Virus record (IMG/VR): IMGVR_UViG_3300046170_000494
Location: 1 to 64,000 of that record
From: a virus
Reading direction: 5' to 3' (one strand)
DNA length: 64,000 nt
A model generated the notes under the pieces. The model saw nothing but the letters and a program-made list of their open reading frames with translations, was not told the DNA's origin and did no database searches. Numbering within the stretch: the stretch's first letter is position 1; every line of letters starts with the position of its first letter. The translations under genes and the position numbers were made by a program. Shown here piece by piece: positions 17,278 through 37,223 of this stretch.

Positions 17278-20200
17278 ATGAAAGTTACAAAGTACGAAGT
17301 AAACGCATTACAAAAAGTTTTAGATTGTATGCACCACTATATGCTTATTGGTCACATAGAAGATGAACATTCAAAAGCGGAATGGAATTCAATTAGGCGA
17401 GCGGTTCGCAGAATGGAAGTTTTACATGAAAAAATGAAGGATAGTTTTTTAAATGAATAAGTCATACGAAATCGAAATAGGATTAACATCCGAAGATATT
17501 GAAAACATTTTAAACGATGAAATGTCAACGCTACATTTTTTACCAACTGAAGAAACTGAATACGATGAAAGAATTAGTGTTCATATCAAGAAAGTCGATG
17601 ATGACGCAACATTATCAGAGTGCATGAATTTGGTTGTTGACAAGCTCAAACAAGTTTAGTAAGATATTAGAATGACAAAAGAATTGACAGAACAAGATTA
17701 TTTTTTAGATCAAGTCGCAGAACTTAATGAAGATGCGATTGTGTTAGAACCTCAATCGACTTTCAATCGGGCAATCATTGGGTTTGATACAAACGGAGTG
17801 CTTATTTATTCGGCAAACAAGATCATTGATGCTCTTAGCAAAGTCGATGGAATGACTACTGAAGAAGCAATAGAGTTTTTCGAGTATAACACACTTGGAA
17901 CATTTAGTGGAATGGATAACCCAAACAAACCTATATTCGCATACGATGAGTTTATTTTCTAAAATTTTTAATATTTTTAAACCAAAGCCAAAGTTGAGCA
18001 AAACTCAATTAAACAAAATTATTCATCAATCTATTTCAAAAAACGAAAGGTTCTTTGAAAATCTTGGAGATGATATGGATTACGATGGTATGGGTAACTA
18101 TGGTAGATTTCCACCAATACAAAGTGACGATCACCCAACATACGAAGAGGTCATAAAAGAATATGAATCACAAAATTCTAAGTAAAGTGCAAGAAGAAAA
18201 AGATAAAATTAAAGACTTGAAGAAACAGATTAGAGACTTAGAAATGGAATTGGAATTTCTTTATGTGAGAGAGCCAAATGAGGTAAGATATATTTCTGAT
18301 CTTGAAAAGAAAGTAGATCAATTATACGAACAATTAGATGCAATTATAGATAATGAGTAAAGAAGAGATAGATGTAGATGATATGCGGTATGAACTTGCA
18401 GAACAAGAAGCAATGAATATGAATGTTGCTGATATAGTTAATTTACTTATCGAAGGATACGAAGGATTAGACAACATAGCAGATATAGACATAATCGAAG
18501 AATATAATAAAGTATTTAAAGATAAGTCTTGACAAGATAATCAATCTAGTTCATGCTTAATTTATGGAAAAAACATACAGAAAGATGCTATACGAAGAGT
18601 TGCAAGAATTAGTATACAACGAAAATTTTAAACTAGATTATGCAAATGATATTCTTATATTGTTTGATGATGAAATCGAAGATGGTGATAGCGAAGCAAC
18701 TGCATACAACAAAGCAATGCAAGATATAGACAATATAAAAAACGGATGTTGGAATTTATGAAAATTACGAATAAATGGGAAGAAACTTTTGAAGTAAATG
18801 TTGGTGATTGGGTAGGATTCAAATGCGACATTGAACAATGCGGAAAAGTAAAAGAGATTCAAAGAAGAGGAGCGTTGATAGTTGAAAACAAAAATGGATT
18901 CGATGGAGATTATATCGGTGGAGATACCGAAGCATTAGTTGGATTCGATGAAGTGTGGAAAGAAAATTATTAAACAAAATTAATTATGAAGTTAACAAAA
19001 TATCAAAAAGCTAGAATGTTGGAATATGGTTGGGATGTTGTCGAAAATGAAGTCGATGGAGAGATTCAGAATTGTTCTTGGATTAGTATTGATGCCGAAG
19101 ATGGAATCATCTATAATGATGCGATCAAACTTTTTGGCTTGACAGGAGACAAAGAAGAGATTAAGCTATTGGTTGTAGGCACAATAGAAGAATGAACTTA
19201 GAAGACAACATAGATATTATTTTTAACGAAGCAGAAAGTAATGCGTTAGGAGAAAACAATTACGATTTGCTTGAACTTATTGAATCAACAAAAGTAGAAC
19301 TACTAAACTTAATTGCACAAAAAAATGAATTATTTTAATCACAAAAGAGTAAATTGGAATACATGGAGTCCACAAGATATTGTATTTAAAAGCAATCAAC
19401 TAATGAAAAAAGTTGCACCAAGCGAAAATGTTTTATCTTGGAGTAGTAAATCAGATCGTGACAGAAAGATGTGCGAGAGAACTAAAGGTAAGTTAATTAC
19501 ATCAAAAAATTGGCAAGGTCAAAGTATAACTTATCATGGTGGAGAGAACTACAAAGGTGTTATGGTTCAAATGAAAGACGCTAAGAGTGATTTTCCATCA
19601 TTCAATATTGACTTTATTGACCAAACAGAAAGATTAGATAGTGTAGGTAATCGCAAAAGTGGACTTGATGTTCATGTTTACCTTAATTCATTTCATAACC
19701 CTTGGCAATGGGATAAATGTCCTACAACAGGTAATTGGGTCAAAACAAACACAGGTCATACCTCTCCATTACGAGAGGGTTATCGTATGTGCTATGGTGG
19801 ACAAGGAGACGCAAATGCTATGGACTTTGATGAATTTCACGAAATGATTTGTATCACAGAAGCATTACGAGATTTCCTTGTTGAAGTTGTAATTCCAACC
19901 AAAAACGGAGAAGTGTTAGACTTAGTTGCATGAGAATTTTCGTTAGTTCAACTATTCTTGTTGCATCAAGTAGTCAAACAGATATTGAATTTGCGAAACG
20001 CAATAAGTTAAAAGAAGTAAAAAAATGATAGAATTACCTGATATATTTTATGCAATCAATATATTCACAGGGTGCATTTTAGTCTTGCTATTTCTTTTGA
20101 TTATGACTAACATAGACTAATGAGTTATTCAATTATAGAAGGTTGCGTAAGGCAAAGTTTAGATTTACCAATAGAAGAAGACATGAGAGACGAGATTTTA

Positions 20201-20789
20201 GTTGAAGAAAAAATTTTAAAGAACAGAAAGAACCCATTGTTTGTAGTAACATCTATTCATGCGGAAGCAATCAATAACATGACTCGCAAGAAGAGTCTTG
20301 ACGAAGTTGATCTTCAATGCCTTAAAGACTTAGGTTTTGCGGTTGCTTATAATAAGCTTGACGAGAATGGAGATAAATGCTATATTAAACATAACGCAAG
20401 AACATTTAAAGAATACATGGATCGAAAGAAAAATTGAACTTTAAGTATAACATAACACATACAATACAAGACAAAGAAGAAATCATAGGATTCCATTCAA
20501 AGAAGAACATGATAACATACTTAAATAAAAACAAAAATTATTTAAATACATTAAATCATGTTTATTTGAATTTTAAAACTATCAAACTACCATTAACACA
20601 ATCAAGTTGGAGAATATCAAAATGCAAGAAATAATAAAAAAAATCTACGAGCGTATGGAATTTTGTGCAAACGCACACACAAATTGCCAAGCTACTGAAC
20701 ATCAATACATATTAGAAATTAGTTTATTGAATGAAGTTTTAGATCAAATTGAAACTTATGATTGGGATTATTACAATAAAGAATGTTAA
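17278..20789 (+). CDS. cluster of about 14 small hypothetical genes
   Basis: ORFs include 17278-17460, 17453-17659, 17672-17962, 18163-18360, 18564-18761, 18746-18973, 18986-19195, 19326-19933, 20120-20437, 20434-20634, 20607-20789; many are acidic. Confidence 0.55.
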
Positions 20790-21232
20790 GAGTAACAGAA
20801 AGACGAGACTTGGAGCAACTATACAATGATGTTCTATGGAATTTTTATCAAGTAATGCCCTACAACAAACTAAGCAAAGAAAAAGCGACAAATTATTGGG
20901 TAAATCAATGGCATAATTTAATATTAATGGGAAGCGGAGCAATTTTTGCATTTAAAAAAGAGCAGGAATTCACAGGTACGATAGGATTATTATTTCACCC
21001 TTCTCTTGAGGATGGGGTACTAATGTGTACCGAAACTTTTTGGTATGTTAATGAAGATCAAAGAGGTCAAGGTCTAAAACTTTTATTTAAAGCTGAAAAG
21101 TTTGCAAAAGAAATGGGGGCAAAAAGATTTATCATGGGATACTTACATAATTCTATGCCTCAAAAAGTAAAAAATCTATATGAGAGATTAAATTATAATA
21201 ATCTTCAAACTGCATACATGAAAGAACTTTAA
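20783..21232 (+). CDS. GNAT family acetyltransferase
   Basis: ETFWYVNEDQRGQGLKLL (acetyl-CoA-binding motif A) and NLYERLNY. Confidence 0.8.
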   Translation: MLRVTERRDLEQLYNDVLWNFYQVMPYNKLSKEKATNYWVNQWHNLILMGSGAIFAFKKEQEFTGTIGLLFHPSLEDGVLMCTETFWYVNEDQRGQGLKLLFKAEKFAKEMGAKRFIMGYLHNSMPQKVKNLYERLNYNNLQTAYMKEL

Positions 21233-21502
21233 ACAAAAACAATATCGCCAATCATATAAATGAGTAAAGGAAAAGAATATAATTACAATAATTTATTTTT
21301 ACATTTAACAGAGCGTTGGCAAGATGGTCAATACGCTCAAGTTGCAGACTATATTAAACATCATCATCATTTTTCAAATCGAGCCAATTTAATAGATTTT
21401 TGTGTATATTTATCTAATTATCTCGGCATGAAAGAATTGCGAGTATTACAAAAACTCATTTAAATGCTTGACAAGCAAAGCGAAATTTCGTAAGATATTA
21501 GC

Positions 21503-22693
21503 ATGACAAAGAAATTGCAGACACTATACAAAATCGACACTAAAGGTAAATTGCGTGAATGGACTATGCACATTGATGGTGCATCATTCTATGCAGTCAA
21601 AGGTCTTGTAGACGGCAAGAAGACAACTGATAAGCCAACAACTACAATTGCCAAGAATGTAGGACGAGCAAACGCAACTACTCCACAAGAGCAAGCATTA
21701 TTGGAAGCCAAAGCCAAATTTCAAAAGAAATTAGATAGTGGATACGCACTTAATGAGATAGACGCACAGAAAAAAAAGTTCTATGAGCCTATGCTCGCAC
21801 ACAATTACAAAGATCGCAAAGATGAATTAGTGGGCAAGTATCCTGTTTTCTCGCAACCAAAACTCGATGGTATTCGTTGCATTGTACGCAAAGAGGATGG
21901 AGAACTCGTAGGACGCACTCGCAATGGCAAAGAGATAGAATGTATCCCTCATATCCTAAAAAGCTTAAATGGGTTCTTTCTCGCCTATCCAAACGCTATT
22001 CTCGATGGAGAACTATACAACCATGATCTGCGAGACAACTTTAACAAGATTACATCACTTGTTCGCAAGCAAAAACCAATCAAGTCAGATAAGATGACTG
22101 ATAAAGCATTTGATAAGAAAGTCGCAGAATACAAAGAAAGACTATCTGAAGCAGAAGATACAATACAATATCATGTATATGATGCACCAAGAATAAATGA
22201 TACAATAAATGAATCACAATCATTTGATTTTAGAACAGATGAATTAAAAGCACATCTAACACAAAACAAACATATTGTATTAGTTGAAACACTAGAAGTT
22301 TATTCAAAAGGAAATTTAGATGATTTATATGGTCAGTATCTTGAGCAAGGATACGAAGGTCAGATGGTTCGCAAATCATTATCTGCATACGAAAACAAGC
22401 GTAGCACATCTTTATTGAAAAGAAAAGAATTTGTAGATGCCGAATATAAAGTTATTGATATTGAAATCGGTAATGGTAATCGTAGTGGAACTGCAAAGCA
22501 TCTCGTATGTTATTGCGATAAGACCAAGCGTACATTTAATAGTAACATCAAAGGTTCATTTGATTACCTCAAGGAAATCTATGATAATCGTAAAGAATAT
22601 ATTGGTCAGTTAGCAACCATTAAATACTTTCAGCTTACTCCTGATGGAATTCCTCGTTTTCCTTATGCAATCGCTTTTCGTAACTACGAATAA
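21503..22693 (+). CDS. lig: ATP-dependent DNA ligase
   Basis: SQPKLDGIRC (motif I), LDGELY, YHVYD, GYEGQMVR, LLKRKEF, TPDGIPRFP; promoter TTGACA(21468)-17-TAAGAT. Confidence 0.93.
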   Translation: MTKKLQTLYKIDTKGKLREWTMHIDGASFYAVKGLVDGKKTTDKPTTTIAKNVGRANATTPQEQALLEAKAKFQKKLDSGYALNEIDAQKKKFYEPMLAHNYKDRKDELVGKYPVFSQPKLDGIRCIVRKEDGELVGRTRNGKEIECIPHILKSLNGFFLAYPNAILDGELYNHDLRDNFNKITSLVRKQKPIKSDKMTDKAFDKKVAEYKERLSEAEDTIQYHVYDAPRINDTINESQSFDFRTDELKAHLTQNKHIVLVETLEVYSKGNLDDLYGQYLEQGYEGQMVRKSLSAYENKRSTSLLKRKEFVDAEYKVIDIEIGNGNRSGTAKHLVCYCDKTKRTFNSNIKGSFDYLKEIYDNRKEYIGQLATIKYFQLTPDGIPRFPYAIAFRNYE

Positions 22694-22894
22694 TTTTATA
22701 TGAAATTTTTTATAATAACTTCATTAGTTGTAATGTTACAAGGTTGCAGTAAGAGGAGCGAGATACTTCACGGCAAGATTTGTCCATTCTGTTTTGCGGA
22801 TAATCCTTCATGGAGAAGAGACTTTTGCGGAACTTGCCTTACTTGGGATAGAGATATACTAATAGATAATAATACATTAGCACAACATTAAAAC

Positions 22895-23220
22895 ATAATG
22901 CAATCAATATACTCTATTACATATACAATATACATATAAACATATATAGATAAACATATATTACATATTATACTATATATCATATCAATAAATAAATTAA
23001 ATTTAAAATAATATTAAAAAATATTGAATTATATAAGGGAATGATGGTGGAGAGAAGTGGGTCAAAATGGGTCATTAGGGAGTACGCGACTTAAATATAT
23101 AATTTTATTTGTATAATTAATTCTTGTAAACAAAAAGAAAAAGCCTAAACCAAAAAGAAAAAACACTTAATAATATAATATAATTTGTATAGTAAAAGTA
23201 AAAACAATAAAAATAAAATA
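22895..23220. other. AT-rich non-coding gap with ACATAT repeats and a G-tract island (origin-like)
   Basis: Five ACATAT copies in 22919-22968; near-pure A/T flanks; four GGG tracts in 23037-23080. Confidence 0.4.
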
Positions 23221-23656
23221 ATGAAAATTTTAATTCAAATAATATTAAATACAAGGCGACAATTACAAAAAATATTTTATCAAATAAAACGCATATTAAG
23301 GTTAATTATACAAAATAAATCATCAAATAAAGCCGAGTTAGAAAAAGTCGGTCGAAATTCTCACGGATTTCCAACTATTTTGAAATAATTCTAATCTAAG
23401 TCATTTATTTACAATAATTTACAATATAATTATATTTATTCTTGACAATTCTCAACCCTTGTATTATAGTATGTAGCATATTATGAATGAAAACGAATCA
23501 AAACCTAAGTACGATATACCTGCTCCACCGCCTTTAACGGACGAGATGAAGATAGATGTGTTTAAAAGCATTATAGCTAATCCACCGAATGAAGAAATAA
23601 AGAAAGTAGCAGAGAAAGAACTCGCTAATTTAACAAAAAATAATAAATAATTAAAT

Positions 23657-25004
23657 ATGGAAGATCAATTGCAAAAGATAAGTGGCGAAATATGTAGTAT
23701 ATTTAATAATAAGATAGAATCACTAACAGAAAAACAAGCAGAGCATTTAAATTTATGCAATAATAGTATGAATTTTTATATACAATTATATGATCATGAT
23801 AAAGCATTATGGAATGCCCGCGAAACACTTAAATATTTAAAACAAATAACACAAAATGGATGATTTAGACCCACAAGCAATAAGAATGTTAGAGTTGAGC
23901 GAGTTAATTGTAAATAAAATTTCATTAAATATAAGTAATTTTGATAATGAACAAATAAGTAAGTTAGAAACAATGCAAGAGACATTAGATTTTCATCTTG
24001 AGCAAGACAATATAGATAATGCAGTTAATGAAGCAGAACATTTAAACACTTACCTTGAAGAAATATGCACATCAGAAGAGAAATAGATAATTTGCTCGAT
24101 GAAATGAGCGAAATAATAGTAAAAAATAAAAAATCAAATAAAGATAAAAGTCAATTACAAGAAATAAAAGATAAAATAAGCCGCAAAACAAACAACGGCA
24201 AATATGCGAAGGGTATGTGGACTGACTCACCTGAATTTAATTATATAAAAATATGAAGCAAATAAACTATCGAAAGCACGGCATCGGCAAGAAAAAGTTA
24301 GGCAAAGGTCTCCGAGGATATAAGGGTGGAACAGGTATTCCAACAGGGGCATTTGGAGGAAAATCAAAATTTCTCAAAAAAAAGCTTGACTCTGAGTCGT
24401 AGTATGTCATAATAGAGTACATCAACCATTAATTGCGAAAGGAAAAAACTATGAGTATTGCAAAAAACGCTAGAGCATCACAAGTCATGAGTGACATTAA
24501 GAACGGCAAACACACACCTGTTAATCAACAAGGGAAGTTTGCGAATTACGGATCAGTTGCCGAAGATAGTATCTATTATTCTACTATGTTGGCACAAAAA
24601 GCAGACGCTGAACGCTTGGCGAGAATCGAGCGTAGTAAAGCAAGACTAGGCAGAAGATCATTTTTTGCATGATAAAAGATGCAATAATAAATAATACTAT
24701 ACTTAATACAATAAATTATTAAATACAATAGTAATTTGCATGATAAAACAAGCTAAATAATATGATTGAATCACTATCTCCTAATGTATCAATGTTTGCG
24801 ACAGAGCAAGAGCTTCGTAATGAGTTAACTACAAAAGAATATGTTTATGTTAAACTCGCGAAGTTAGATGAGCATATTACTGATCTTCTTCACATGACCG
24901 AAAAAACTAATGGAGAACTTAGTATGACTGCATCAAGCAAATACAATTACATCAAATCAATACAAGAAGACTTATTAAGAGTAAACAGAAATAATTGCAC
25001 ATGA
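23657..25004 (+). CDS. cluster of small hypothetical genes
   Basis: 23657-23863 and 23856-24086 look like tandem paralogues; also 24065-24256, 24253-24402 (Gly/Lys-rich), 24451-24672, 24762-25004. Confidence 0.55.
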
Positions 25005-25169
25005 AAATTAATATTTTTCAACAACCGCACGAATGGACTAACGAAGAGATCGAACACCTCTACGATACAAATTGGAACATCACATTAGAACAATTATCTC
25101 TACTAACAAACAAAACAATAGAAGAATTAAAAAATTTATTATTACCTGATTAAAAAAATAAAAAAACTC

Positions 25170-25198
25170 TTGACAAATAATCAAATATAGAGTATAAT
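25170..25198 (+). promoter_or_regulatory. consensus sigma70 promoter
   Basis: Perfect TTGACA-17-TATAAT with no ORF downstream before the terminator. Confidence 0.85.
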
Positions 25199-25204
25199 AA
25201 GGGC

Positions 25205-25604
25205 ATAACAAATTGAGAAACAAACTCAAATAAATCAAATAATCGATCTTTTACATTTTAAAAACAAGTTGGAGTTCACAATCTCATTCTGTTAAGTCAG
25301 AGTTCACTCGATCATTTCAATTTGTTTTGACTTTGGATGTTCTCGACGGAGACATCCTGTGGGTGACTGAATAAGCTCGTCGTGAGCGAGCTAAGGTACG
25401 CGATTCTCTGTGGTAGAGTGCTGATGGGCAAATGTCTGAGGCAGGACAATCACCAATGTCTAATCGTTGTAGGAAGTAGGTAAACACGAAACTGATGTTC
25501 ACGCCGAAAACTTGAGGGTATACAGGAATCCCTCCCCACTTCAATTTCTTAATCATATCCCTCCAACCCTATCCAAGTAACCCTACTTGGGTAGGGTTTT
25601 TTTT
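25205..25604 (+). ncRNA. structured ncRNA, resembling the manA RNA motif
   Basis: Own promoter and terminator, GC-rich, no + strand ORF. Hairpins GGATGT/ACATCC, AGCTCG/CGAGCT, GAGGG/CCCTC. Segments GACTGAATAA, TAAGGT and GGTATACAGGAATCC match my recollection of manA RNAs (not verified). Confidence 0.6.
25565..25604 (+). terminator. intrinsic terminator
   Basis: 15-bp stem AACCCTATCCAAGTA/TACTTGGGTAGGGTT followed by a T run. Confidence 0.9.
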
Positions 25605-25643
25605 GGGGTTGACAAAGCGATCGATATCATTCATACTAGTATC

Positions 25644-25898
25644 ATGAAGACAATTAAAGACATACTTGCTAACTACGGGTACATTAACCAGGCTCAACTC
25701 GCAGAGATTAACGAGCACTTTCCTCACATGAGGGTAGTAATTAAATGGGGCGGATTGCCTCGCGATCGGGTACCTGCTCATCAAGCGGTGAAACTCATTA
25801 ACCATATTGAATCAAAAAACATCGACTACTGCAGAGAAGTATTTCTTTGTGGTAAAGATTGCGACAATCTTCGCAAAGCATTTCACATTGCACAATAA
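25644..25898 (+). CDS. hypothetical protein
   Basis: ATG 6 nt after CATACT of the promoter starting TTGACA at 25609. Confidence 0.6.
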   Translation: MKTIKDILANYGYINQAQLAEINEHFPHMRVVIKWGGLPRDRVPAHQAVKLINHIESKNIDYCREVFLCGKDCDNLRKAFHIAQ

Positions 25899-25916
25899 CC
25901 ATAAACAAAAATTATT

Positions 25917-26495
25917 ATGATTAATCCAGCAGAAGTAACAAACTACAATAGAACACAATACGAATTAGAAGAATTTATTTTATTTTGTATTAATGTCGCA
26001 GGTAAAAAATCTGCAATAGAAGCTCCTAAATTAGAAGTATTCATAGAGAGAGCAAAAAACATTACAGAAGAAAGTACTCCATTTAATTGTATTAAAAAAT
26101 TAATTAAGTTGGGTAGATTGAATGAGATTATGCATTGGGCCAAGCTTAGTCCTTACGCCCAGAGATACAACTCCTATGTCGCTGTAGCTAAGATCAAAGG
26201 CCTTCAGACCGTGACGCTTAATCGTTTACTTCAGATTCCGGGTATTGGTCTTAAAACCGCAAGGTTTTTCTTGTCGCATTCCAGAGAAGATTTCGACGAA
26301 CCTATGCTGGACACACATATTCTACGGTTCCTTCGCGACCAAGGATACAGTGACGCCCCGAAAAGCACGCCAACTAATGAGAACACTTACTATTATTTCG
26401 CGAACATCTTTAAAAACATTGCCCGACAGTTAGGGAAATCAGTTACTGATCTTGATCTTGAAATCTGGAAACAGTATTCTGGCACAGCTGCGTAA
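25917..26495 (+). CDS. 8-oxoguanine DNA glycosylase-like (Ogg, HhH-GPD)
   Basis: LLQIPGIGLKTARFFL (HhH with catalytic Lys), LDTHILRFL, DLDLEIW. Confidence 0.78.
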   Translation: MINPAEVTNYNRTQYELEEFILFCINVAGKKSAIEAPKLEVFIERAKNITEESTPFNCIKKLIKLGRLNEIMHWAKLSPYAQRYNSYVAVAKIKGLQTVTLNRLLQIPGIGLKTARFFLSHSREDFDEPMLDTHILRFLRDQGYSDAPKSTPTNENTYYYFANIFKNIARQLGKSVTDLDLEIWKQYSGTAA

Positions 26496-26572
26496 TGGAG
26501 TTAACAATACTACTAACCATTTCGTTTGTAATAGGCATGTTCAGAGGATATTTCGATGGGCGCGATGATTGA
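26495..26572 (+). CDS. 25-aa transmembrane micropeptide
   Basis: MELTILLTISFVIGMFRGYFDGRDD; paralogue at 33140-33214. Confidence 0.55.
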   Translation: MELTILLTISFVIGMFRGYFDGRDD

Positions 26573-26710
26573 TCCAAATATGAAAGACAAATACCCAAAT
26601 ACTAAATAATGAAAATTGCAATAGTAAATAATACAAATAATAAACTAAATAATAAAAAATTTGTGAAATTAGAATAAAAAGAATAAGTAATTAAAAAAAT
26701 TATTTTGTGC

Positions 26711-26767
26711 AGTCAGCCCCCCCCTGAGAGGATAAGTCACAAACTTAGTTGAATATTAGCCTTGACT
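26711..26767 (+). repeat. GC-box promoter module A
   Basis: C8 run, GATAAGTCA, TAGTTGAA, then TTGACT-16-CATACT. Confidence 0.7.
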
Positions 26768-26795
26768 TTGTGTAAAAAAATGTCATACTAAAGCT

Positions 26796-28429
26796 ATGAT
26801 TAAGACAAAGCCTCACGACAAAAAGTATGAGATTAATTTTAATCAACCTGTCTACGCTTACAAAAACCTACACAAAGATTGTTGGAGTATTCGTCAAGAT
26901 GGATTGGTTAAAGCTCACACCAAAGAACTTTCCATGCATAGTTGCGTGTTTAAAGTCAGTAAGCATGGAAGAGCAAGAGTGTTAAAAGAAAAACGCAAAA
27001 ATGTTCATGCAGGTATTGAAGGTTACATTGAACCTTGGTTTGTTGGTAAATGGATTGACTCGCATCCAACAGCAAGACCCGTTACTTACAATCCATACAA
27101 GTATGAGAATTTTGTTGACAAAGACACCGAGCAAATGGTAGACTATGCTATTGCCGTAAGATTAGAACCCAAACAAGTATTAGCAGTATTATGACGCAAG
27201 CAAAAATTAGAGAAGAAATTCTAAGCATAGTTCGAGGAGAACTTGCATGGGCAGATCCAATGTCTAAAGTATGCTTAGATCAGCATGAATTGCATCCAAA
27301 AAAGTTTCCGATTGGCTCAACTTTTCAATCAGCCGAAGAAGTCTTAGACGACATAATTCATGGCTTGACATCTTTACGAGATGAGATTAGAATAGAATCT
27401 TCATTTCAATCCGCACAACTCTAACAAAAGGAAAATCATGGGATTAGACCAAGAAGCATACTCACGAGGCAAAGAAGATCAAAGTTCTTTCTCTCATTAT
27501 TGGCGAAAGCATAATCGTCTCCAAGGATGGATGGAAAACCTTTGGGAAGAAAAAGGTAGACCAAATTCTCGCACAGAAAATGATCCAATGGGAGACTTTA
27601 ATTGTGTTGAGCTAGAATTAACAAGAGAAGACATTGATTTGCTAGAGGAAGCAGTAAATGATTTTGCATTACCTGAAACACAAGGATTTTTCTTTGGAGA
27701 TGATTCTTACTTCTACAAAGATGACAATGGAGAATCTCTTCCTGAGAACGATTACTACCACAAAGAGCAAGATTTGCAATTCATCGAAGATGCAAAAAAA
27801 GCTCTTGACAAAGGTGAGAAAGTTTACTATTCTAGTTGGTATTGATTATGGAAGAACTACAAAACACAATTAACGATCTGCAAGCTAGACTAGCAATAGT
27901 TGGCGGAGGCAGGATCATTATTACTAGCGACCATGTTTCGATTCGTCTCGGAAGAGAACATGAATACTTTGAGGTTCAAGAACAAAGTTCTTTTGACTCG
28001 CCAAACGAAGTCGATGTGGAAATGCACAAACAAATGTACAATTACTAAAATGGAAAACGAAAATTACATTAATGCGGTTTGCGAAGGCGAGCCATTAGAA
28101 ACGCCATCCTACAATCAGGATTCAGAAACTTGGAGTTTATGGTTTGAGGAATCAGAAACCCCTTACCATCCATATTTTCAAAAGGATTTAATCGAGGTTC
28201 ATTTTGAATCTCAAGCGGAAGCAGAGAGTGCTTACAACCATTATTCACAAATTAACCAAGGTTAATCATGTCGAATTCAGCTCAATCATTGCAGAAGAAA
28301 GTTCGTGAAATAGGTTTTAATTTAGCTATGATCGAAAAGCGTGGGCTTCGGGGCAAGGATCATCTTGCTCGCAGGCTTGCACACAATCTCTTGCTTAATC
28401 AGCTTTACGAGTTAGAGAAAAAGGTTTAG
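26796..28429 (+). CDS. cassette A: six small genes
   Basis: 26796-27194 (conserved YKNLHK..WS..RKNVHA family), 27191-27424, 27438-27845 (conserved MGLDQ..YWRKHN..FFFG..YYSSW family), 27836-28048, 28050-28265, 28268-28429. Confidence 0.65.
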
Positions 28430-28436
28430 TAGGTTT

Positions 28437-28465
28437 GGGTTCGGTGGGTTAATCCTGCCGAACCC
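28437..28465 (+). terminator. hairpin, probable terminator
   Basis: 12-bp stem GGGTTCGGTGGG/CCTGCCGAACCC followed by TTCTACTTT. Confidence 0.65.
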
Positions 28466-28490
28466 TTCTACTTTATTGCACAATTTTACT

Positions 28491-28556
28491 CAGGCCCCCC
28501 CGCAAAAGAATAAGTCAATTATTTAGTAGAATGTTTTTTGCATTTGGGGGTTGACA
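28491..28556 (+). repeat. GC-box promoter module B
   Basis: GGC7, GAATAAGTCA, TAGTAGAA, then TTGACA-16-CATACT. Confidence 0.7.
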
Positions 28557-28721
28557 ATACCGGATTTTCTGTCATACTAGTAAACATAAAGGCGATAATC
28601 ACAAACAAAAAAAATTAGTCGAAACAAAAAAAACTTAATTGAAGAAAAAAAAGCTTGACAGATTAGACCAAATTTAGTACAATTAACTCATCAAAGACAA
28701 TAACTCACAAAGCTAAAAATT

Positions 28722-29474
28722 ATGACAAATCGAATTAACCTCAAAGTATGTGCAACCAAAGAATCCTCTTTCAAAGATGTTCAGGCAGTTCAAACTCCTG
28801 AAGCAACTGATTCATGGAGACCAATTAGCCACTCATTCTTAGTTGACCGAGTGCAAAACCAAATGGAACAAAATGGTTGGGAAATCGTTGACACTTACCA
28901 TTCTCTTCATCGTTTCGGTCAACGCTACTTCGGACTTTTTCATGTTAAGAATACAGGAGTTGACAACGATGAGCGTGGCACAATCGTTGGGCTTCGCAAC
29001 TCTCACGACAAATGCTTTCCCGCAGGACTTTGCATGGGTAACGCTCCATTTGTTTGTTCAAACTTGATTTTTACCAATGAAGTTGTTCTTGCTCGTAGGC
29101 ATACTAAGAACATCTTGAACGATCTTTCACAAGTAATCGCTCGCACTCTTGGCAAGATGACTGAGACATGGGCAAGTGATGAGCAACGCATTCAAGCTTA
29201 CAAGGAGCATGAACTTGGCAACGAGCAAGCACATGATCTTGTCATCCGTGCATACCAAAACGGAGCAATTCCAAAAGCAAAGATTGCTGATGTTGTTGAG
29301 CAATGGCACAAGCCTGAACATGATGACTTTTCACCTCGCACCATGCACTCATTGTACAATGGATTCACTCACATTCTAAAGGGTGGAATTACCGCCTTGC
29401 CAAATCGTTCACTTGCATTGCATGGTGTTCTTGACTCGGAAGTCGGTTTGACTTCTCAAGTTGCAGTTTCTTAA
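28722..29474 (+). CDS. DUF932 family protein
   Basis: WRPISH...VGLRNSHDK...FVCSNLIF...RRHTKN pattern. Confidence 0.78.
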   Translation: MTNRINLKVCATKESSFKDVQAVQTPEATDSWRPISHSFLVDRVQNQMEQNGWEIVDTYHSLHRFGQRYFGLFHVKNTGVDNDERGTIVGLRNSHDKCFPAGLCMGNAPFVCSNLIFTNEVVLARRHTKNILNDLSQVIARTLGKMTETWASDEQRIQAYKEHELGNEQAHDLVIRAYQNGAIPKAKIADVVEQWHKPEHDDFSPRTMHSLYNGFTHILKGGITALPNRSLALHGVLDSEVGLTSQVAVS

Positions 29475-29518
29475 TCATAACCTAACCTAATCTAAAAATC
29501 ATTAAAACTAATAATACT

Positions 29519-29749
29519 ATGAAAAAACAGCCAAAACTACAAAATGTCGTTGATTCTCTCAAAGGTCGTTTCACTTCTCTTCTTGTCAAGAGAGGCGAGC
29601 AAAGAAGGGTGTATTCCGCCAAAATCACAGGAGTGACTTCTCGTCATGTGATGTTCAAGGATACCAACGGAGGCAATCGTCGAGTCAATCGTCGTCATGT
29701 GCTTCGAGCCACTTGTGCTGACAAAACTTTTAAGAGGTCGGTGAGTTAG
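29519..29749 (+). CDS. small basic protein (SH3/WYL-like)
   Basis: GRFTSLLVKRGEQRRVYSAK; fold assignment is tentative. Confidence 0.5.
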   Translation: MKKQPKLQNVVDSLKGRFTSLLVKRGEQRRVYSAKITGVTSRHVMFKDTNGGNRRVNRRHVLRATCADKTFKRSVS

Positions 29750-29775
29750 TGATTCGCTCGTAAAGAGCAAAGATT

Positions 29776-29800
29776 AAGCCTCCCGAAAGGGAGGCTTTTT
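29776..29800 (+). terminator. intrinsic terminator
   Basis: AAGCCTCCC-GAAA-GGGAGGCTT followed by a T run. Confidence 0.92.
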
Positions 29801-29807
29801 CTTTTAT

Positions 29808-29881
29808 AAAGTTAACCTATTCAATCCGGGCCCCCCGGCAGTAGAATCGTGCAAAAACTTAGTTGAATTTTGGACTTGACT
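29808..29881 (+). repeat. GC-box promoter module C
   Basis: AAAGTTAACC..CCGGGCCCCCC..GAATCGTGCAA..TAGTTGAA..TTGACT. Confidence 0.85.
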
Positions 29882-29909
29882 TTAGGCAAGAATTTGTCAT
29901 AATGAAACC

Positions 29910-30650
29910 ATGATTAAGACAACAATTCTCACTCAAGGAAATGCAAAGATAGTCAAAGGCGAGGAGCTTGGCTATGTTACTAAAGGCATCCATTTTGCTC
30001 CTGCTAGTCTCTCAGGTAATGAGGTTTGCCAATGGCGAAGCAAAGGTTGCACTGCTTCTTGTCTCAACACTGCTGGTCGTGGGCAAATGAACTCAATTCA
30101 GGCATCAAGAGTAGCAAAGACAAAACTATTTTTTGACAAGAAAAAAGAATTCATGTACAAGTTGTGCAAAGAAATTGCTTCTTCAATCAAGACTTCAACC
30201 AAGAAAGGAATGAAATCAGTTTTCCGTCTCAATCTAACTAGCGACATTGCTTGGGAGGATGTTTACATGAAAGACCCAGATTACAACATCTTTGAATACT
30301 TCTGTGGAGAACAATTCTACGATTACACAAAGTCATTCAAGAGAATGTGTGCTTTTCTTGGTAAACCTTTTACTAAAGATGAACAAAAATTTCCATCTAA
30401 TTACCATCTAACTTTTTCTCGCTCAGAAAACAATGACAAGAAGTGTGAAATGGTTCTTGCTATGGGTGGTAATGTTGCCGTTGTGTTTCGCAACCAACTT
30501 CCACAAACTTGGAAAGGTTACGAAGTTGTCAATGGTGACGAAAACGATTTGCGTTTTCTCGACAAGCAAGGTGTTGTTGTTGGCTTAATCGAGAAAGGTT
30601 TGGCAAAGAAAGATGAAACAGGATTCGTGCAAGAAGGAGTAAACTCATAA
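29910..30650 (+). CDS. Gp88-like protein
   Basis: CQWRSKGCTASCL, FRLNLTSDI, QFYDYTK, YHLTFSRSE, GDENDLRFLD. Confidence 0.82.
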   Translation: MIKTTILTQGNAKIVKGEELGYVTKGIHFAPASLSGNEVCQWRSKGCTASCLNTAGRGQMNSIQASRVAKTKLFFDKKKEFMYKLCKEIASSIKTSTKKGMKSVFRLNLTSDIAWEDVYMKDPDYNIFEYFCGEQFYDYTKSFKRMCAFLGKPFTKDEQKFPSNYHLTFSRSENNDKKCEMVLAMGGNVAVVFRNQLPQTWKGYEVVNGDENDLRFLDKQGVVVGLIEKGLAKKDETGFVQEGVNS

Positions 30651-30841
30651 TGAAACCAAAAACTTATTCAGTTAGACAACATCATTTACGAAAAAACAAA
30701 ACTTTTTTCATTATTGATTATCGAGTTAATGAAAGAGTAGAAAAGCAAATTCAATTCACTTATCTTGAGCATTACTTACAATTCACTGATTTATTAAAGC
30801 AATTAGACTACAAAGAAGTATTGACAAAACAACTCAACTAA
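30650..30841 (+). CDS. hypothetical protein
   Basis: Start coupled to the Gp88 stop. Confidence 0.5.
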   Translation: MKPKTYSVRQHHLRKNKTFFIIDYRVNERVEKQIQFTYLEHYLQFTDLLKQLDYKEVLTKQLN

Positions 30842-31021
30842 ACTATTATTGTAACATGAATGATACTTATTACGACTCAGCCGAAGAAATTAAACTCTCA
30901 CAAAGTGAAGCCTTTAATGTGCTTGCTCAACATGGTTGCCAAGAGCTTGATGAATTTTTTCAAGACATGGGCGACAAAGAAGAGTATGATGCACAAAAAG
31001 TATTGGAATGGTTAGGCTACT

Positions 31022-31097
31022 AAAAAGTTAACCGATCCTGCCACGGGGGCCCCGCGATAGAATCGTGCAAAAACTTAGTAGAATATTAGTCTTGACT
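31022..31097 (+). repeat. GC-box promoter module D
   Basis: AAAAAGTTAACCGATCC..GGGGGCCCC..GAATCGTGCAA..TAGTAGAA..TTGACT. Confidence 0.85.
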
Positions 31098-31126
31098 TCG
31101 CTAGAGGTTCTGTCATAATGATACTT

Positions 31127-31227
31127 ACCGACACGATTTAACCAAGCTGCAAATTGGTGGTAATGAAGAGAAGCATGATTGCAGTCACCGCTCCACTCTT
31201 GAGGGTTCAATTCCCTCCGTGTTCGGT
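31127..31227 (+). ncRNA. tRNA-like RNA (T arm plus acceptor-like stem, non-canonical body)
   Basis: GAGGG-TTCAATT-CCCTC T arm; 5' ACCGACACG pairs with 3' CGTGTTCGGT; starts at the TSS of the module D promoter. Confidence 0.55.
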
Positions 31228-31272
31228 ATGATTTTTTCTTGACTTTCACCATTAATCTGTCACAATTAAACT

Positions 31273-31386
31273 ATGATTAAGATTAGAAAAACCATTCTCT
31301 TCACCAAGTCTAGACCTCACAAGCTTAAGACTAAAGTGATTCATCGTAAACTCAAACACAAGGAGATTTTAAAAAATGTTCATTAA
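31273..31386 (+). CDS. 37-aa basic peptide, ArfA-like pattern
   Basis: MIKIRKTILFTKSRPHKLKTKVIHRKLKHKEILKNVH; own promoter TTGACT(31239)-16-CACAAT. Confidence 0.5.
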   Translation: MIKIRKTILFTKSRPHKLKTKVIHRKLKHKEILKNVH

Positions 31387-32345
31387 AGAAAATTCTGAAG
31401 AAATTCCTAACTCAAAAGAGGCTATGAGTCTTTGCATGGCATACCTCTGGGAAAATGTCATTGAACCAAGTAGCAAGGAAGGCGTCATTAGTCTAAAAAA
31501 TTATGACATGATTAAAGAGATTGGTCATGCTTTAACCATCATTGGAGAAAAAGCTCACGCCTACGAGAAAATGATTGACAACAACGAGCAATTTCCCTTA
31601 CAATCCTAATTAATGAAACACTTGCTAACTAAATCAAATGACGGATGCTTCATTATTGTAAGCTCAGAAGAAAAGACAGACAAGAATGATCTGTTCATCT
31701 CTGAAGACACATTCAAAAAGAACATTAACACTAAAACATTCGTAAAACACTCAACGCTAACCCATAATTCACAACCAATCTACATTTACCATGAAGACCT
31801 TTGATGACTTAAAATTCGCACCTCACCCTCACGCAAAAGATTTGGGAGTGACGGCAAGTTTAACCCTTGACAATGGCTATGCTTTCAGCGTTGTTGCTAA
31901 TACTGATGGTGGCGATCTGTTTTACGGCAATCACCCAAACACTTTTGAGGTTGCAGTCTTCAATCAACGAGGTGACTTTGTTCCACTCTCTGTTTCGGAC
32001 GATGTGCTTGGTTGGCAAGCTCCACACCAAGTGACTTCGCTGATGCATCAATTTGAGATTGACGGAATCAAGCACGAAAAATTACTTCACGATCTTCGGA
32101 ATGACTTCAACGAAAAAGTAGTAAAAAAACACAAAGAAAGAGGCAGGATTATGAATAGTTACCAAATACTAAAGAACGGCGAGCCAATGGGCATTCAAGG
32201 AACTTTTGACTACATTGTCAACGCAATACGAAACCTTGAATCAAATCTTGATCGAGCAACTGAACATTCACCTTTTACTGTTGCACTCGTAAATACTCAA
32301 GCTAAAATAACAAAAAATTTAGTGGAAACAACAAATACTAAATAA
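31376..32345 (+). CDS. three hypothetical genes (31376-31609, 31613-31804, 31791-32345)
   Basis: The last begins with the conserved phage pattern MKTFDDL.F..H...NGYAFSVV...FEVAV...DDVLGW. Confidence 0.6.
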
Positions 32346-32414
32346 TAAATAACAAATACTAAATAAAAGAATAGGTCAATCAAGATATAAAAATTATATT
32401 ATAAAAGTATTTAA

Positions 32415-32455
32415 TTAACCGATTCTATCAGGGCCCCCCTGCAGTGGGATAAGAT
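32415..32455 (+). repeat. truncated GC-box module E at the convergence point
   Basis: TTAACCGATTC..CAGGGCCCCCCTGC..GATAAG with no promoter following. Confidence 0.7.
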
Positions 32456-32469
32456 AACTTTTTAAGAGG

Positions 32470-32923
32470 TTACTCCCATTGGGAGTGAAATCCCCAATCA
32501 ATGTCGGGCTGGTCTTCAAATTGTATGAGTGAGATCTGGTCTTCCAGCTCGCCAATTTCATTGCGTATTGCAATTCTTTGAGAGTCGGTCAAGATGCACT
32601 CTTTAAGAACTTTGTGAAGTTCGAGGATTTCTTTTTGCATTTCGTTTTTGGTCATAAAAGTAATTTAGCAAAGTAAAAAAGTAATTGCAAGCTTTTTATT
32701 CATCCATTAACCACTCGTCAAGTGCGTAAATGTCAAGCTCTTCATCTTTAAAGCTCGCTCCGTCAGGAGTAGCAAACATTCCTGCATTTTCAAGGCAACT
32801 TGCAAGATCCTTAAAGCTCACAAATCTACGAGAGAGCTTGTAAAGGAATTCGTCATTATCTAACCAAAGAGCGACATTCCAAGTTGCCCAATTTTTCCAT
32901 CCGTTGTATGTTGTATCTGTCAT
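32470..32923 (-). CDS. two small genes (32470-32655, 32696-32923)
   Basis: The second has the conserved TYNGW.NWATWNVALWLDNDE.LY motif; start 32923 is 6 nt after TACATT. Confidence 0.65.
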
Positions 32924-32949
32924 GATAGTAATGTAGTCAAATTTTTCAC

Positions 32950-33028
32950 AAAAGTCAAGAAAAACTTTCAACTATTTTATTGCACAATTCGCTCGCAGGG
33001 GGGCCCGGGTTGGATCGGGCAACTTTTT
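32950..33028 (-). repeat. GC-box promoter module F
   Basis: 47 bp identical to module H, then GGGGGGCCCGGGTTGGATCGGGCAACTTTTT (+ strand reading). Confidence 0.9.
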
Positions 33029-33036
33029 AACGCTAA

Positions 33037-33068
33037 AGGTCAGGTCACTAAAAGTGACCTATTGACCT
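33037..33068. terminator. inverted repeat hairpin
   Basis: AGGTC-AGGTCAC-TAAAA-GTGACCT-AT-TGACCT. Confidence 0.5.
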
Positions 33069-33214
33069 AAAGCATGAACCAAAGAAAGAATAATGGAGAG
33101 AGGATTATGCAACCTAGCTCTAGTAAAAGTAATTCCATTTTAGAAAACTGAATCGGTTATTCCACGAAAAATGCCAATGACGAACGCTATTGAGAGAAGT
33201 AGTGCTAATTCCAT
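33067..33214 (-). CDS. two tandem transmembrane micropeptides (33140-33214, 24 aa; 33067-33138, 23 aa)
   Basis: MELALLLSIAFVIGIFRGITDSVF and MELLLLELGCIILSPLFFLWFML; promoter TTGACT-17-TACAAT with ATG 6 nt downstream. Confidence 0.55.
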
Positions 33215-33251
33215 AATCTAATTGTAGCAAAAAAAGGCTTGTTAGTCAAGC

Positions 33252-33992
33252 CTATTCTCCGAAGATTTCACGCATTGACGGACTCACGGATTTCATGTCG
33301 TGAAGATTTTCGTCATTGTCAAAGTCATCATCTTCTTCGGCTTTGTCATCAAAAGAAGCAAGCTCTTGAACTTCATCTTGAACATCTTCTTTTTTTGCGT
33401 TAAGTAAGCCATATTCGAGAACGAGATCTTCAGCAAGCTTTTCGACCTTTAATTCTTCAATGAAGTTTTGAAGTACAGGACTTACTTCGGCATTATTATT
33501 TTCCGCAATTCTACGGATGTTTTCTAGTCTTTGTGATTCTGTCATAGTAATTAGATTAAACGAATTTTTCAGGTTTTGCAAGCAAAAACTTCATGAAAGT
33601 TTTTTGTGCTTTTTGATTGTCTTGAATCTCGTCAAGCTCAATTTGGGCATTGATGACCATTTGCATGGATTCAATGTTGCCAAGATCGGCAAGAGGTGTT
33701 TGGATTCGAATGATTTCTTTGAGTTCTTTTATTTTGTCCATGGTAGTAATCTAGTTGATTTTTTAATTTATTGCAAGCTAAAAACGATTTATTTTTGAAT
33801 TTCTTTAAACATTTTTTGAAGAGCTTCAACCTTTTCAATGAGTCCTTGCGTTGTCATTTCTTCAGTCAAAGTCCTTGCGGATTCTTTTTTTTCTGTGTTC
33901 ATGTAATGCAAAAACTCAATAGACCCTTTGATTTGAGCGAGCTTAATTCCGAAGTCGAGTTCTTGGAGGAGTGTTTCTTTTGTCTTAATCAT
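33252..33992 (-). CDS. three small genes (33252-33545 highly acidic, 33556-33741, 33789-33992)
   Basis: Each is preceded by a TTG-type promoter on the minus strand. Confidence 0.6.
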
Positions 33993-34021
33993 AAGTAAAA
34001 ACTACCACAGAAACCGGCAAA

Positions 34022-34097
34022 ACACAAGCCTAAAATTCAACTATTTTATTGCACAATCCGCTCGCGGGGGGGCCCGAGTTGGATCGGGCAACTTTTT
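34022..34097 (-). repeat. GC-box promoter module G
   Basis: One mismatch to module H across the ~60-bp core. Confidence 0.9.
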
Positions 34098-34713
34098 AGA
34101 CGATTTGGGTTAGTCTATTTATTTTTGCTGTGAGAGTGATTTGCCTTGCCTCATTCTGCCATTTTTGTGAACTATTGCTGAACCTTTTATTTCTAGATAG
34201 ATTCATCACAGAAAAAGCTCCTTCGTGCAGTCTATTCACTACCTTGCACAATTCTCTTGTTTCTTTGATTGGATTTGATTTGTCTTTGACAAAGTCAGAG
34301 GTTTGAAGCCAAACATTTTTCATTTTCAAGATTTCAACATTTGTTCTAATTCTGTAAAATTTTACATCAACTAAATTCTCAGGCGTTCCATCCCAAAAGC
34401 CGACAACCAAAACCAAACCTTTTTTAATTGTTTTTAATTTTCTTGCAATGTCTCCGAGTTGAATTTCTTTGCTTTTTATATTGTAGTATTTTACTTCCCA
34501 ATCTCCGATCAATTTTTTAGGAACTCCGCCTTGGCGAACAATTTCTTCAGGAAAGTCAACTTCTGCGTTGTGCTGTTCATGAGTAGGAAAGCCAAAGTAA
34601 TCAGAGATGAAGCGTTCAAACGCTTTGCCGTGCTTTCCTCTTTGTTTGTTGTGTACGCTGATATTACGAACATATTGTTTGATTTTTGGGAATGATTTTT
34701 GTGCAAGTTTCAT
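34096..34713 (-). CDS. PD-(D/E)XK restriction-endonuclease-like protein
   Basis: HGKAFERFI...VD...WEVK...IQLGDIAR pattern. Confidence 0.55.
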   Translation of the reverse strand: MKLAQKSFPKIKQYVRNISVHNKQRGKHGKAFERFISDYFGFPTHEQHNAEVDFPEEIVRQGGVPKKLIGDWEVKYYNIKSKEIQLGDIARKLKTIKKGLVLVVGFWDGTPENLVDVKFYRIRTNVEILKMKNVWLQTSDFVKDKSNPIKETRELCKVVNRLHEGAFSVMNLSRNKRFSNSSQKWQNEARQITLTAKINRLTQIV

Positions 34714-34765
34714 AATTTTATTTTTTAAGCAATTAGATTTGAGTTTATATAAATTTTTTTTTCTG

Positions 34766-34966
34766 TCAAGCATTTCTTTCTACTGACTTCCAACCATAAG
34801 CTAAAACTTTGTCATTATAGCGAGCTTGTGAAAGCATAGCCTTAAGGTCAGAAATTTTTGCATTGATCCAATCAATTTCGCTTTGATCCATTTTACCTTG
34901 CCACATTGCAAGTTGGTTTTTTTCTATTGCGATTTCGTTTTTTATTTGTTCTGTTGTCTTAATCAT
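34766..34966 (-). CDS. hypothetical protein
   Basis: Starts ATGATTAAGACA; own promoter. Confidence 0.6.
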   Translation of the reverse strand: MIKTTEQIKNEIAIEKNQLAMWQGKMDQSEIDWINAKISDLKAMLSQARYNDKVLAYGWKSVERNA

Positions 34967-35119
34967 ATTTACAATCTATTATATATTTTAGCAAAAGTCA
35001 AACTTTATTTTACTTTTTTTTGAGTTTTTTTAAGTTTGAAGGCGAGGAGAATTTTTTCTCTTTCTGTGAGTGGTTGTCTATCTTTTTGATTCATACCTAA
35101 ACATCGCACAGAAACCCCG

Positions 35120-35198
35120 AAAAGTCAAGAAAAACTTTCAACTATTTTATTGCACAATTCGCTCGCGGGGGGGCCCGAGTTGGATCGGGCAACTTTTT
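35120..35198 (-). repeat. GC-box promoter module H
   Basis: + strand reading AAAAGTCAAG..TTTTATTGCACAATTCGCTCGC-G7-CCCGAGTTGGATCGGGCAACTTTTT. Confidence 0.9.
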
Positions 35199-35204
35199 AG
35201 TTGG

Positions 35205-35963
35205 TTAAAACACAAGAAGATCTGGCTCAGCAGTATTAGAAGCGAACCAGTCGGATGGGTTAATTTCTTGACCATTTAGTACAGGCTCGAATTTGTACTG
35301 ATAGACGCCCGCGTTAGCTATGCCGTTGACGCGTTCGCGTGTGGTGGGTGTATTCCATCCCGCAAGCGACCATCTGACAAGCCCGTCAGGATCGCGTTTG
35401 ACAATTGCGTTACCATGCAGCCAAACGGTTTTGCCGTCTGTCTCGGTGTTGCCGACTTTTAAAGATGTGCCTTGCTCGAAGGCTGCTTTGATTTGTGCTG
35501 TTACTTTTCGCATAATTATTTTGTTTCGTTTTTTCTTTGTTTGTGAAGGATTGCTTGCAATTGTTTTCTTGCTTCCTGTATTGCATGCAACGCATCCAAC
35601 ACAGCTTCGCCTTGTGTGAATGTTTTCATTTCTGCATTAGCAAGGAAGTTCAGATTTCCTTCGGCTTTCGAAAGAGCGAGTCCGAGTTCTAGTTCGATGA
35701 ATCTTTTTTGTTCTGTCATAGTATTACTTTAAGAAATTTTTTGTGCAATTGCAAGCTAAAAGTGAATTATTTTAAGCTATCCATTCGACAAGTTCAAACT
35801 TTCTAGGCAGTCCAAACTTGGCAAGATCTTTGTTCAAGTCTTCAATCGTTGCGTGATGTTCGCATTTCATCATTACATTTGAGCTGATCAGCTCGCCTGT
35901 CTTGCGGTCAATTATATTTACTTTGGCAATGAAGCCGTTTACTTTATTATTTGTCTTAATCAT
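35205..35963 (-). CDS. three small genes (35205-35513, 35516-35719, 35772-35963)
   Basis: The first has the conserved MRK...NT...VWLHGNAI...GWNTPTTRERVN phage pattern. Confidence 0.65.
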
Positions 35964-35994
35964 ATACCTACAAGGTAGCACATCAGGTCAGAAA

Positions 35995-36080
35995 TTGCAA
36001 GCAAAAAGTGAAAAAAGATTCTCTTATTTTATTGCACAATTCAACCGCCGGGGGGCCCGAGTTGGATCGGGCAACTTTTT
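35995..36080 (-). repeat. GC-box promoter module I
   Basis: TTTTATTGCACAATTC..G6-CCCGAGTTGGATCGGGCAACTTTTT. Confidence 0.88.
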
Positions 36081-36878: not shown

Positions 36879-36938
36879 AATTTTTTTTCTTATATTGTTT
36901 AACTTACTATATATACAATCTAACAAACTGAGCCGGAA

Positions 36939-36998
36939 TTGCAAGAAAAAAGCGAAAAAAGATTCAACTATTTTATTGCACTATACCCCCACCCCCGG
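36939..36998 (-). repeat. divergent GC-box module J
   Basis: TTCAACTATTTTATTGCAC is shared with F-H, followed by CCCCCACCCCCGG instead of the G run. Confidence 0.6.
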
Positions 36999-37223
36999 TA
37001 TGACCCTACCCATTAAATGAATTCATTTCCTGTATTAGTTTTGTGAGAAGTGCGGGGGGTGCCTTTTTTCAATATGAAATTCATCTTATAAATTACAATA
37101 TATATGTTCAACTAAAAAAAATACGGGGCCTATATAAAAATAATCAATTTATATATAAAACAATAAGGCTTGCCTCATAAAAAAATAAAAAACGTGTACT
37201 ATTATGTTAGTATAATATATAAA

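Follow-up and report, generated by a model that had tools for sequence, protein, structure and literature searches.

We suggest, with moderate confidence, that positions 25170–25606 of the window (the whole 64-kb stretch of DNA that was analysed) are an early, self-contained gene whose product, a non-coding RNA of ~400 nt, is built around the canonical manA fold, carries a boxA leader and would act in trans as a self-assembling particle. By its arrangement the unit looks like a stand-alone RNA gene rather than a switch before a protein gene. The RNA family (RF01745) is already known; the informative part is the organisation of the gene. The features of the region are as follows.

25170–25198, + strand: promoter P1 (−35 TTGACA at 25170–25175, 17-nt spacer, −10 TATAAT at 25193–25198; 12/12)
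25213–25229, + strand: leader hairpin H1 (TTGAG, 7-nt loop, CTCAA)
25244–25255, + strand: boxA-like box (window CGATCTTTTACA; lineage consensus TGATCTTTAACA)
25261–25328, + strand: accessory hairpin module (68 nt; a long hairpin in the MFE and centroid folds)
25335–25544, + strand: manA RNA core (full-length match to the RF01745 model)
25335–25357, + strand: manA helix P1, within the core
25359–25363 with 25535–25539, + strand: manA long-range (pseudoknot) helix GUGGG/CCCAC (the pseudoknot helix of Rfam, also given by RNAalifold)
25410–25414 (GUGGU), 25452–25455 (ACCA), 25491–25494 (ACUG) and 25523–25526 (CAGG), + strand: manA loop motifs
25545–25564, + strand: pyrimidine-rich linker (TTTCTTAATCAT conserved at 25545–25556, then a CCCTCC box)
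25565–25606, + strand: intrinsic terminator (15-bp stem at 25565–25598 with a 4-nt loop, U8 at 25599–25606)
25609–25646, + strand: promoter P2 of the next gene (−35 at 25609–25614, −10 at 25632–25637, ATG at 25644; 10/12)
25644–25898, + strand: downstream 84-aa ORF, separate from the RNA gene

The window has ~33% G+C and encodes rIIA, rIIB, DNA ligase, DNA polymerase, the large terminase and numerous small + strand ORFs. No cultured relative of the locus is found by megablast or blastn, and rIIA and the terminase have only 22–28% identity to any cultured phage. With identity of at most 28% no host can be assigned, and the phage is not of the cyanophage T4-like type. On sequence grounds we take the window to represent a large uncultured marine phage without close cultured relative.

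manA core

The Rfam search places RF01745 (manA) at 25335–25544 (+) with 84.3 bits (gathering score 55.2 bits), E 5.2e-20 and model positions 1–192 of 192. The unpaired manA motifs GUGACUGAAUAA, UAAGGU, GUGGU, ACCA, ACUG and GGUAUACAG.AAUCC are all in the window and aligned with the consensus. The manA label given in the preliminary description of this DNA thus holds, and every motif listed there is correct. No family besides manA is found in the 64-kb window, either at the gathering threshold or at E≤1; GOLLD and ROOL, which the same description had proposed to look for with Rfam, have no match even at E≤1.

RNAalifold on 19 relatives, the window and 2 cyanophage manA copies predicts 34 manA pairs, of which 20 carry compensatory (both-side) changes, so the covariation with homologues that had been proposed as a check is present. 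The GTGGG/CCCAC closing stem, noticed earlier as a possible long-range pairing, is among the predicted helices; two of its pairs change on both sides relative to the cyanophage copies, and it is identical with the Rfam pseudoknot helix. The 130 nt between promoter and manA, which the earlier view of a ~400-nt manA-like RNA had not set apart, lie outside the manA fold.

The core has 49% G+C compared with ~33% for the genome. The longest + strand ORF between promoter and terminator is 33 aa (GTG start), and no ORF on either strand, this one included, is kept in 25 related loci, in agreement with the initial impression of a GC-rich stretch without a + strand gene. There is a negligible chance that the region instead encodes a minus-strand small protein, the 79-aa ORF at 25556–25317, which has an SD-like GGAGGG 3 nt before its ATG. 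This ORF is not kept among the relatives: across 25 loci the longest one on the minus strand varies from 27 to 100 aa, with different starts and frames. Substitutions track base-pair covariation and not codon structure, and the ORF runs opposite to all neighbouring genes, without a promoter. Comparison of the loci leaves the protein-coding reading effectively refuted.

Directly 3′ of manA, UUUCUUAA is common to the window lineage (25545–25556) and Prochlorococcus phage P-SSM4 (L036:1677–1690). It lies outside the end of the RF01745 model, hence the Rfam model may be a few nt short.

Promoters, terminator and the next gene

P1 is the sole 12/12 sigma-70 site in 18000–37500. It is preceded by an A-rich tract (25150–25166), and its predicted start is at ~25201–25205. 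The terminator stem has −22 kcal/mol and is the longest stem in 18–37.5 kb. The next gene has P2 as its own promoter (25609–25637, 10/12). These three elements, described before as a TTGACA-17-TATAAT promoter, a 15-bp terminator (stem at 25565–25598, T8) and a separate promoter of the next gene, are all found at their places, and the last is conserved in 25 loci. The −10 of P2 ends 6–7 nt before the ATG, therefore a leaderless mRNA is predicted and the next gene would have no 5′ UTR to regulate. This gene also lacks an SD, and its 84-aa product (25644–25898) has no Pfam or PHROG family match.

Sigma-70-like promoters (≥10/12) that end 6–8 nt before an ATG are numerous in the 64-kb window. Their −35 elements start on the + strand at 592, 4539, 8081, 10572, 12023, 14638, 16478, 17637, 21468, 25609, 29876, 30821, 31575, 44931 and 48670, and on the − strand at 33249 and 36370. 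The genes behind them include rIIB (14675), DNA ligase (21503) and ORFs at 16513, 29910, 44966 and 48706. The phage seems, from these positions, to make leaderless mRNAs on a large scale.

Conservation of the unit in relatives

Relatives were retrieved via the neighbouring 192-aa gene as 30 IMG/VR loci. In 25 of the 30, manA exceeds the gathering score (61–89 bits), at constant position and orientation, and it is single-copy in three relatives that are 79–95% complete. Both manA and the boxA-like leader are missing from the three most distant loci (L026, L028, L030). G001, the record nearest to the window, covers only 31 kb, starts just downstream of manA and has no manA match.

The order promoter, leader, manA, terminator and second promoter is the same in 25/25 loci. 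This arrangement is beyond chance, since it recurs in every one of the 25 related loci that reach far enough upstream. P1 scores 11–12/12 at the same place in all of them, the leader is 60–178 nt long, and the spacing from the P2 −35 to the ATG is 35 nt, except for 36 in L025. The terminators have 15 different stem sequences with −18 to −28 kcal/mol, each followed by U6–8; hence it is the pairing of the hairpin, through compensatory changes, and not its sequence that is kept. The manA unit of L023 is followed by another gene. The stand-alone transcription unit of the preliminary description is thus supported by the conservation of promoter, terminator and P2 in 25 loci, together with the lack of coupling between aptamer and terminator described below.

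Three relatives have an extra conserved module of ~90–100 nt between manA and the terminator (L021:3300–3386, L022:3297–3385, L025:3154–3241). It contains a GCGGAGGUUGUGUGUUGCCUC hairpin, has no Rfam match at the gathering score, and its nucleotides fold separately.

Most relatives (L004–L020, L023, L024, L026, L028, L030) have tRNA genes 2–3 kb up- or downstream of the manA unit or its locus. No tRNA gene is found in the 64-kb window.

Leader of the transcript

The first ~60 nt of the predicted transcript show conservation equal to that of manA itself. H1 is present in 22/22 unique loci, with the compensatory pair TTAAG/CTTAA (G:C to A:U) in L017, L019, L020 and L029. The boxA-like box lies ~15 nt past H1 and is the most conserved block of the leader in the 22 loci; its invariant columns in the lineage alignment are G, A, T, C, T, T, T, A and A (GATCTTT-A-A). 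The E. coli boxA consensus is UGCUCUUUAACA, and the boxA-like consensus of B. subtilis, AUGAUCUUUGAAA, likewise has a small hairpin before it at the start of rrn transcripts (PMC13753749; PMC2724277). The lineage consensus TGATCTTTAACA agrees with the E. coli boxA at 11/12 positions and the window box CGATCTTTTACA at 9/12. TGATCTTTAACA and the B. subtilis consensus have UGAUCUUU in common. The boxA-like 12-mer is not enriched in the 64-kb window, where its count is at chance level, so the support for boxA comes from conservation and position. This chance-level count and the 9/12 agreement of the window box speak against the boxA role.

We suggest that the leader probably loads NusB-S10 and, in the manner of rRNA operons, protects the long untranslated RNA against Rho. 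The antitermination leader of rRNA operons (boxB hairpin, boxA, NusB-S10) likewise has a small hairpin and then boxA near the 5′ end of a long untranslated RNA. The leader described here differs in being phage-borne and upstream of a 210-nt structured RNA instead of rRNA, and the window boxA has only the 9/12 agreement.

The accessory hairpin module is shared by the window and L002, by L006 and L024, and by L007. It is absent from most loci and is replaced by other modules in L029, L021 and L023. The MFE fold also contains 9 bp between the leader (AUUGAGAAA) and the 3′ linker (UUUCUUAAU); this pairing was rejected, because it is lost in L017, L023, L021, L022 and L025 and competes with the covarying H1.

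RNA in marine metatranscriptomes

The stretch 25170–25606 is covered by assembled contigs in several marine metatranscriptomes. Four runs were mapped to 23500–27500; assembled contigs cannot prove transcript ends, strand or level. In two of the four runs (X3 and X4, from two studies) the deepest contigs of this region lie on the manA unit, with depths of 8.9 and 26.7 in X3 compared with ≤4.7 elsewhere, and of 17–26 in X4 compared with ≤3.2 elsewhere, relative gene depths and uncovered parts not being interpretable from contigs. A conserved 36-nt piece reaches a depth of 310 in X4 and probably comes from manA of other phages. One contig aligns from 25204 onwards, 6 nt past the P1 −10, and another, of low depth (25485–25635), crosses the terminator. 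We note that the metatranscriptome support for the manA unit is weak.

The crossing contig bears on a second reading of the leader, in which the unit would chiefly serve for antitermination, as a nut-like entry site. A polymerase made termination-resistant by H1 and boxA at P1 would read through the terminators of the unit and of the downstream cassettes, with manA as a passenger or a 5′ stabilising structure. Such a role would fit the hairpin and boxA-like box at the transcript start, the organisation of the genome in terminator/promoter cassettes and the terminator crossed by one contig. However, boxA complexes of the rrn type act mainly on Rho-dependent terminators (PMC2724277), every downstream gene has its own promoter, and the boxA-like leader occurs in the 64-kb window only with manA. 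The strict conservation and covariation of the 210-nt fold would also be left unexplained, as would the leaderless manA copies of cyanophages. We regard this reading as quite improbable.

manA in cyanophages and other loci

The position of many manA copies in 5′ UTRs led Weinberg et al. (2010, PMC2864571) to propose manA as a riboswitch candidate. In the Prochlorococcus phages P-SSM4 and P-SSM2 a sigma-70 promoter that equals or nearly equals the consensus lies ~7 nt ahead of manA, and there is no leader; the P-SSM2 copy also lacks a terminator, with a start codon 15 nt beyond its 3′ end. A quick search of Syn9, S-PM2 and S-RSM4, with a first-look filter that may miss copies, gives no manA match. 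manA of P-SSM2 and P-SSM4 and that of the window have the same fold, conserved junction and loop nucleotides and long-range helix, and both are phage-borne, marine and behind a near-consensus sigma-70 promoter. They differ at both ends: the cyanophage manA begins at the transcription start, whereas in the window it is preceded by a leader with a hairpin, a boxA-like box and optional modules; and the window manA is followed by a strong terminator and the promoter of the next gene, unlike that of P-SSM2. The P6 and P8 regions of the window manA deviate from the Rfam consensus.

We surveyed 61 further IMG/VR manA loci. The best upstream promoter scores ≥11/12 in 56 of them, compared with 2.6% of control windows, and for all survey promoters of ≥10/12 the end lies between −5 and +20 nt relative to the first position of the manA model. 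A hairpin with a U-tract lies within 35 nt of manA in 19/61 loci. About half (30/61) have, like P-SSM2, an ORF within 45 nt and no terminator; the riboswitch proposal rests on this layout, which speaks against the stand-alone reading. To judge from these sequences, stand-alone manA is a recurrent minority in the family, with the window lineage as its clearest case.

In cyanophage-like contigs (L064, L051, L090, L053, L096, L094, L089, L115, L083, L060) a conserved ~35-nt hairpin ACCUAAGAUGCAACUC...GGGCAGAUGGU, followed by a U-tract, lies 4–13 nt after manA. It is no plain terminator, as its sequence is too conserved and it is too weak (−7 to −9 kcal/mol).

One further copy, L103:6321–6494 (the same sequence in L085), matches the full model with 51.8 bits, just under the cut-off. 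It exactly fills the gap between tRNA-Gly (6238–6311) and tRNA-Pro (6499–6575) in the tRNA array of another phage. Lying between adjacent tRNA genes, manA cannot be a 5′ UTR there, and it would, from its position, be released by tRNA processing. In L117 manA (1452–1629, − strand, 59.5 bits) lies ~1.5 kb from a phage tmRNA gene (3137–3435, − strand), on the same strand.

Kissing loops and proposed self-assembly

According to the cryo-EM preprint of Ren et al. (July 2026), manA RNAs assemble in vitro into decamers, octamers and an icosahedral cage of 60 subunits. These particles are pentamer-based and held by L5–L7′ and L8–L9′ kissing loops; they were obtained with trimmed cores, in vitro, at high RNA and Mg, and the preprint still calls manA putatively cis-regulatory (bioRxiv 10.64898/2026.07.01.735769). 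On the Rfam helices we infer that L5–L7 corresponds to GUGGU/ACCA and L8–L9 to ACUG/CAGU.

The GUGGU/ACCA pair is present in the window. Its U:A is replaced by C:G in L008–L010 and L025 (two groups), with U:G intermediates and with mismatches in four groups. In ACUG/CAGU, G:C changes to A:U in L014 and L011, with six contiguous pairs. For both loop pairs, intra- and intermolecular pairing cannot be separated by sequence. The window pair, ACUG/CAGG, has only 3 Watson-Crick pairs; this and the mismatches of several relatives in GUGGU/ACCA speak against self-assembly. The RNAs studied by cryo-EM and the window RNA belong to the same Rfam family, and the presumed equivalent loop pairs are present and covary in the window lineage. 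However, the former are other variants in the form of trimmed cores, whereas the window transcript is predicted to have a leader, an accessory hairpin and a terminator, and its L8–L9 pairing is the short one. By homology, the window RNA would probably act in trans as a self-assembling particle.

GOLLD and ROOL are free-standing phage non-coding RNA genes with ornate folds, which form RNA-only multimers, often adjoin tRNA genes and have no known function. manA resembles them in these traits, with tRNAs within 2–3 kb of related manA loci and one copy inside a tRNA array. It differs in being much smaller and without sequence or structure homology to them, and the window has no tRNA gene.

Relation between manA and the terminator

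The main alternative to an RNA gene is that manA is a riboswitch aptamer and the 25565–25598 hairpin its expression platform. The ligand would then set the read-through from P1 into the 84-aa gene and beyond, and P2 would give a basal unregulated level. manA is classed as cis-regulatory by Rfam and Weinberg et al. 2010, and besides the copies directly before an ORF and the contig that crosses the terminator, its numerous conserved unpaired nucleotides are typical for ligand pockets. Riboswitches normally have a terminator behind the aptamer, and a coupling test was therefore run. For the same reason the terminator alone is no argument for trans action; the preliminary description had counted it, together with the own promoter of the next gene, towards a trans-acting RNA.

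In a swap test with 15 terminator classes the native combinations are computed to be no stronger than the swapped ones. The best duplexes of manA with the arms of its own terminator have means of −12.5 and −13.0 kcal/mol, compared with −12.9 and −13.4 kcal/mol after swapping, and the pairing sites are scattered. CUUGAGGGU, considered as an antiterminator to the 5′ arm of the terminator, does no better in this test than chance pairing.

Aptamer and terminator arms hence show no co-evolving alternative pairing. The linker between manA and the terminator varies from 12 to >100 nt, the next gene has a conserved promoter of its own and neither 5′ UTR nor SD, and in L023 it is a different gene. Further points against a riboswitch are the homo-oligomers seen by cryo-EM, the manA copy within a tRNA array and the literature since 2010, in which no manA ligand is found. 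The Rfam type 'Cis-reg' denotes an element in the 5′ UTR of a controlled gene without independent termination, and the window locus is not of this kind; nor, according to the computation, does the terminator compete with part of the aptamer, as it would in a transcriptional riboswitch. We therefore consider the riboswitch unlikely. The uncoupled terminator, the variable linker, the absence of 5′ UTR and SD and the different neighbour in L023 speak, as far as sequence can tell, for a terminator that works constitutively and an RNA that stands by itself.

Proposed mechanism

For the autonomous RNA gene we propose the following sequence of events.

Step 1: Early in infection the host RNA polymerase would transcribe the unit at a high level. 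The boxA-like leader may recruit NusB-S10 as in rRNA operons.

Step 2: The untranslated transcript would then escape Rho and fold co-transcriptionally. Transcription would end at the terminator with the release of a discrete RNA.

Step 3: By homology with the manA RNAs seen in cryo-EM, RNA copies may join by the loop-loop contacts GUGGU/ACCA and ACUG/CAGU. The resulting pentamer-based closed particles would act in trans, presumably as a scaffold or decoy for a host or phage component.

Significance for the manA family

manA has been an orphan riboswitch candidate since 2010, and the 2026 preprint describes its particles without biological context. Nature provides a clear test case in the window lineage, where manA is delimited like an independent gene. 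Because its promoter is the strongest of the region, its leader resembles that of rRNA, its terminator is strong and uncoupled and its neighbour has no 5′ UTR, one can test directly here whether manA is a switch or an assembling RNA. Several facts on the family are not stated in the literature searched: manA almost always starts at a near-consensus sigma-70 start site, about one third of its copies are then followed by a hairpin and U-tract, and one copy lies inside a tRNA array.

More tentatively, and with less confidence than for the window unit, we put forward that manA is no riboswitch but a phage 'RNA particle' gene. Its abundant early transcript would use antitermination of the host rRNA type, form decamers or cages in the infected cell and act in trans during the takeover. 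If this is true, the 5′-UTR copies of cyanophages would form the same kind of particle, with the RNA either excised from the mRNA or still attached to it.
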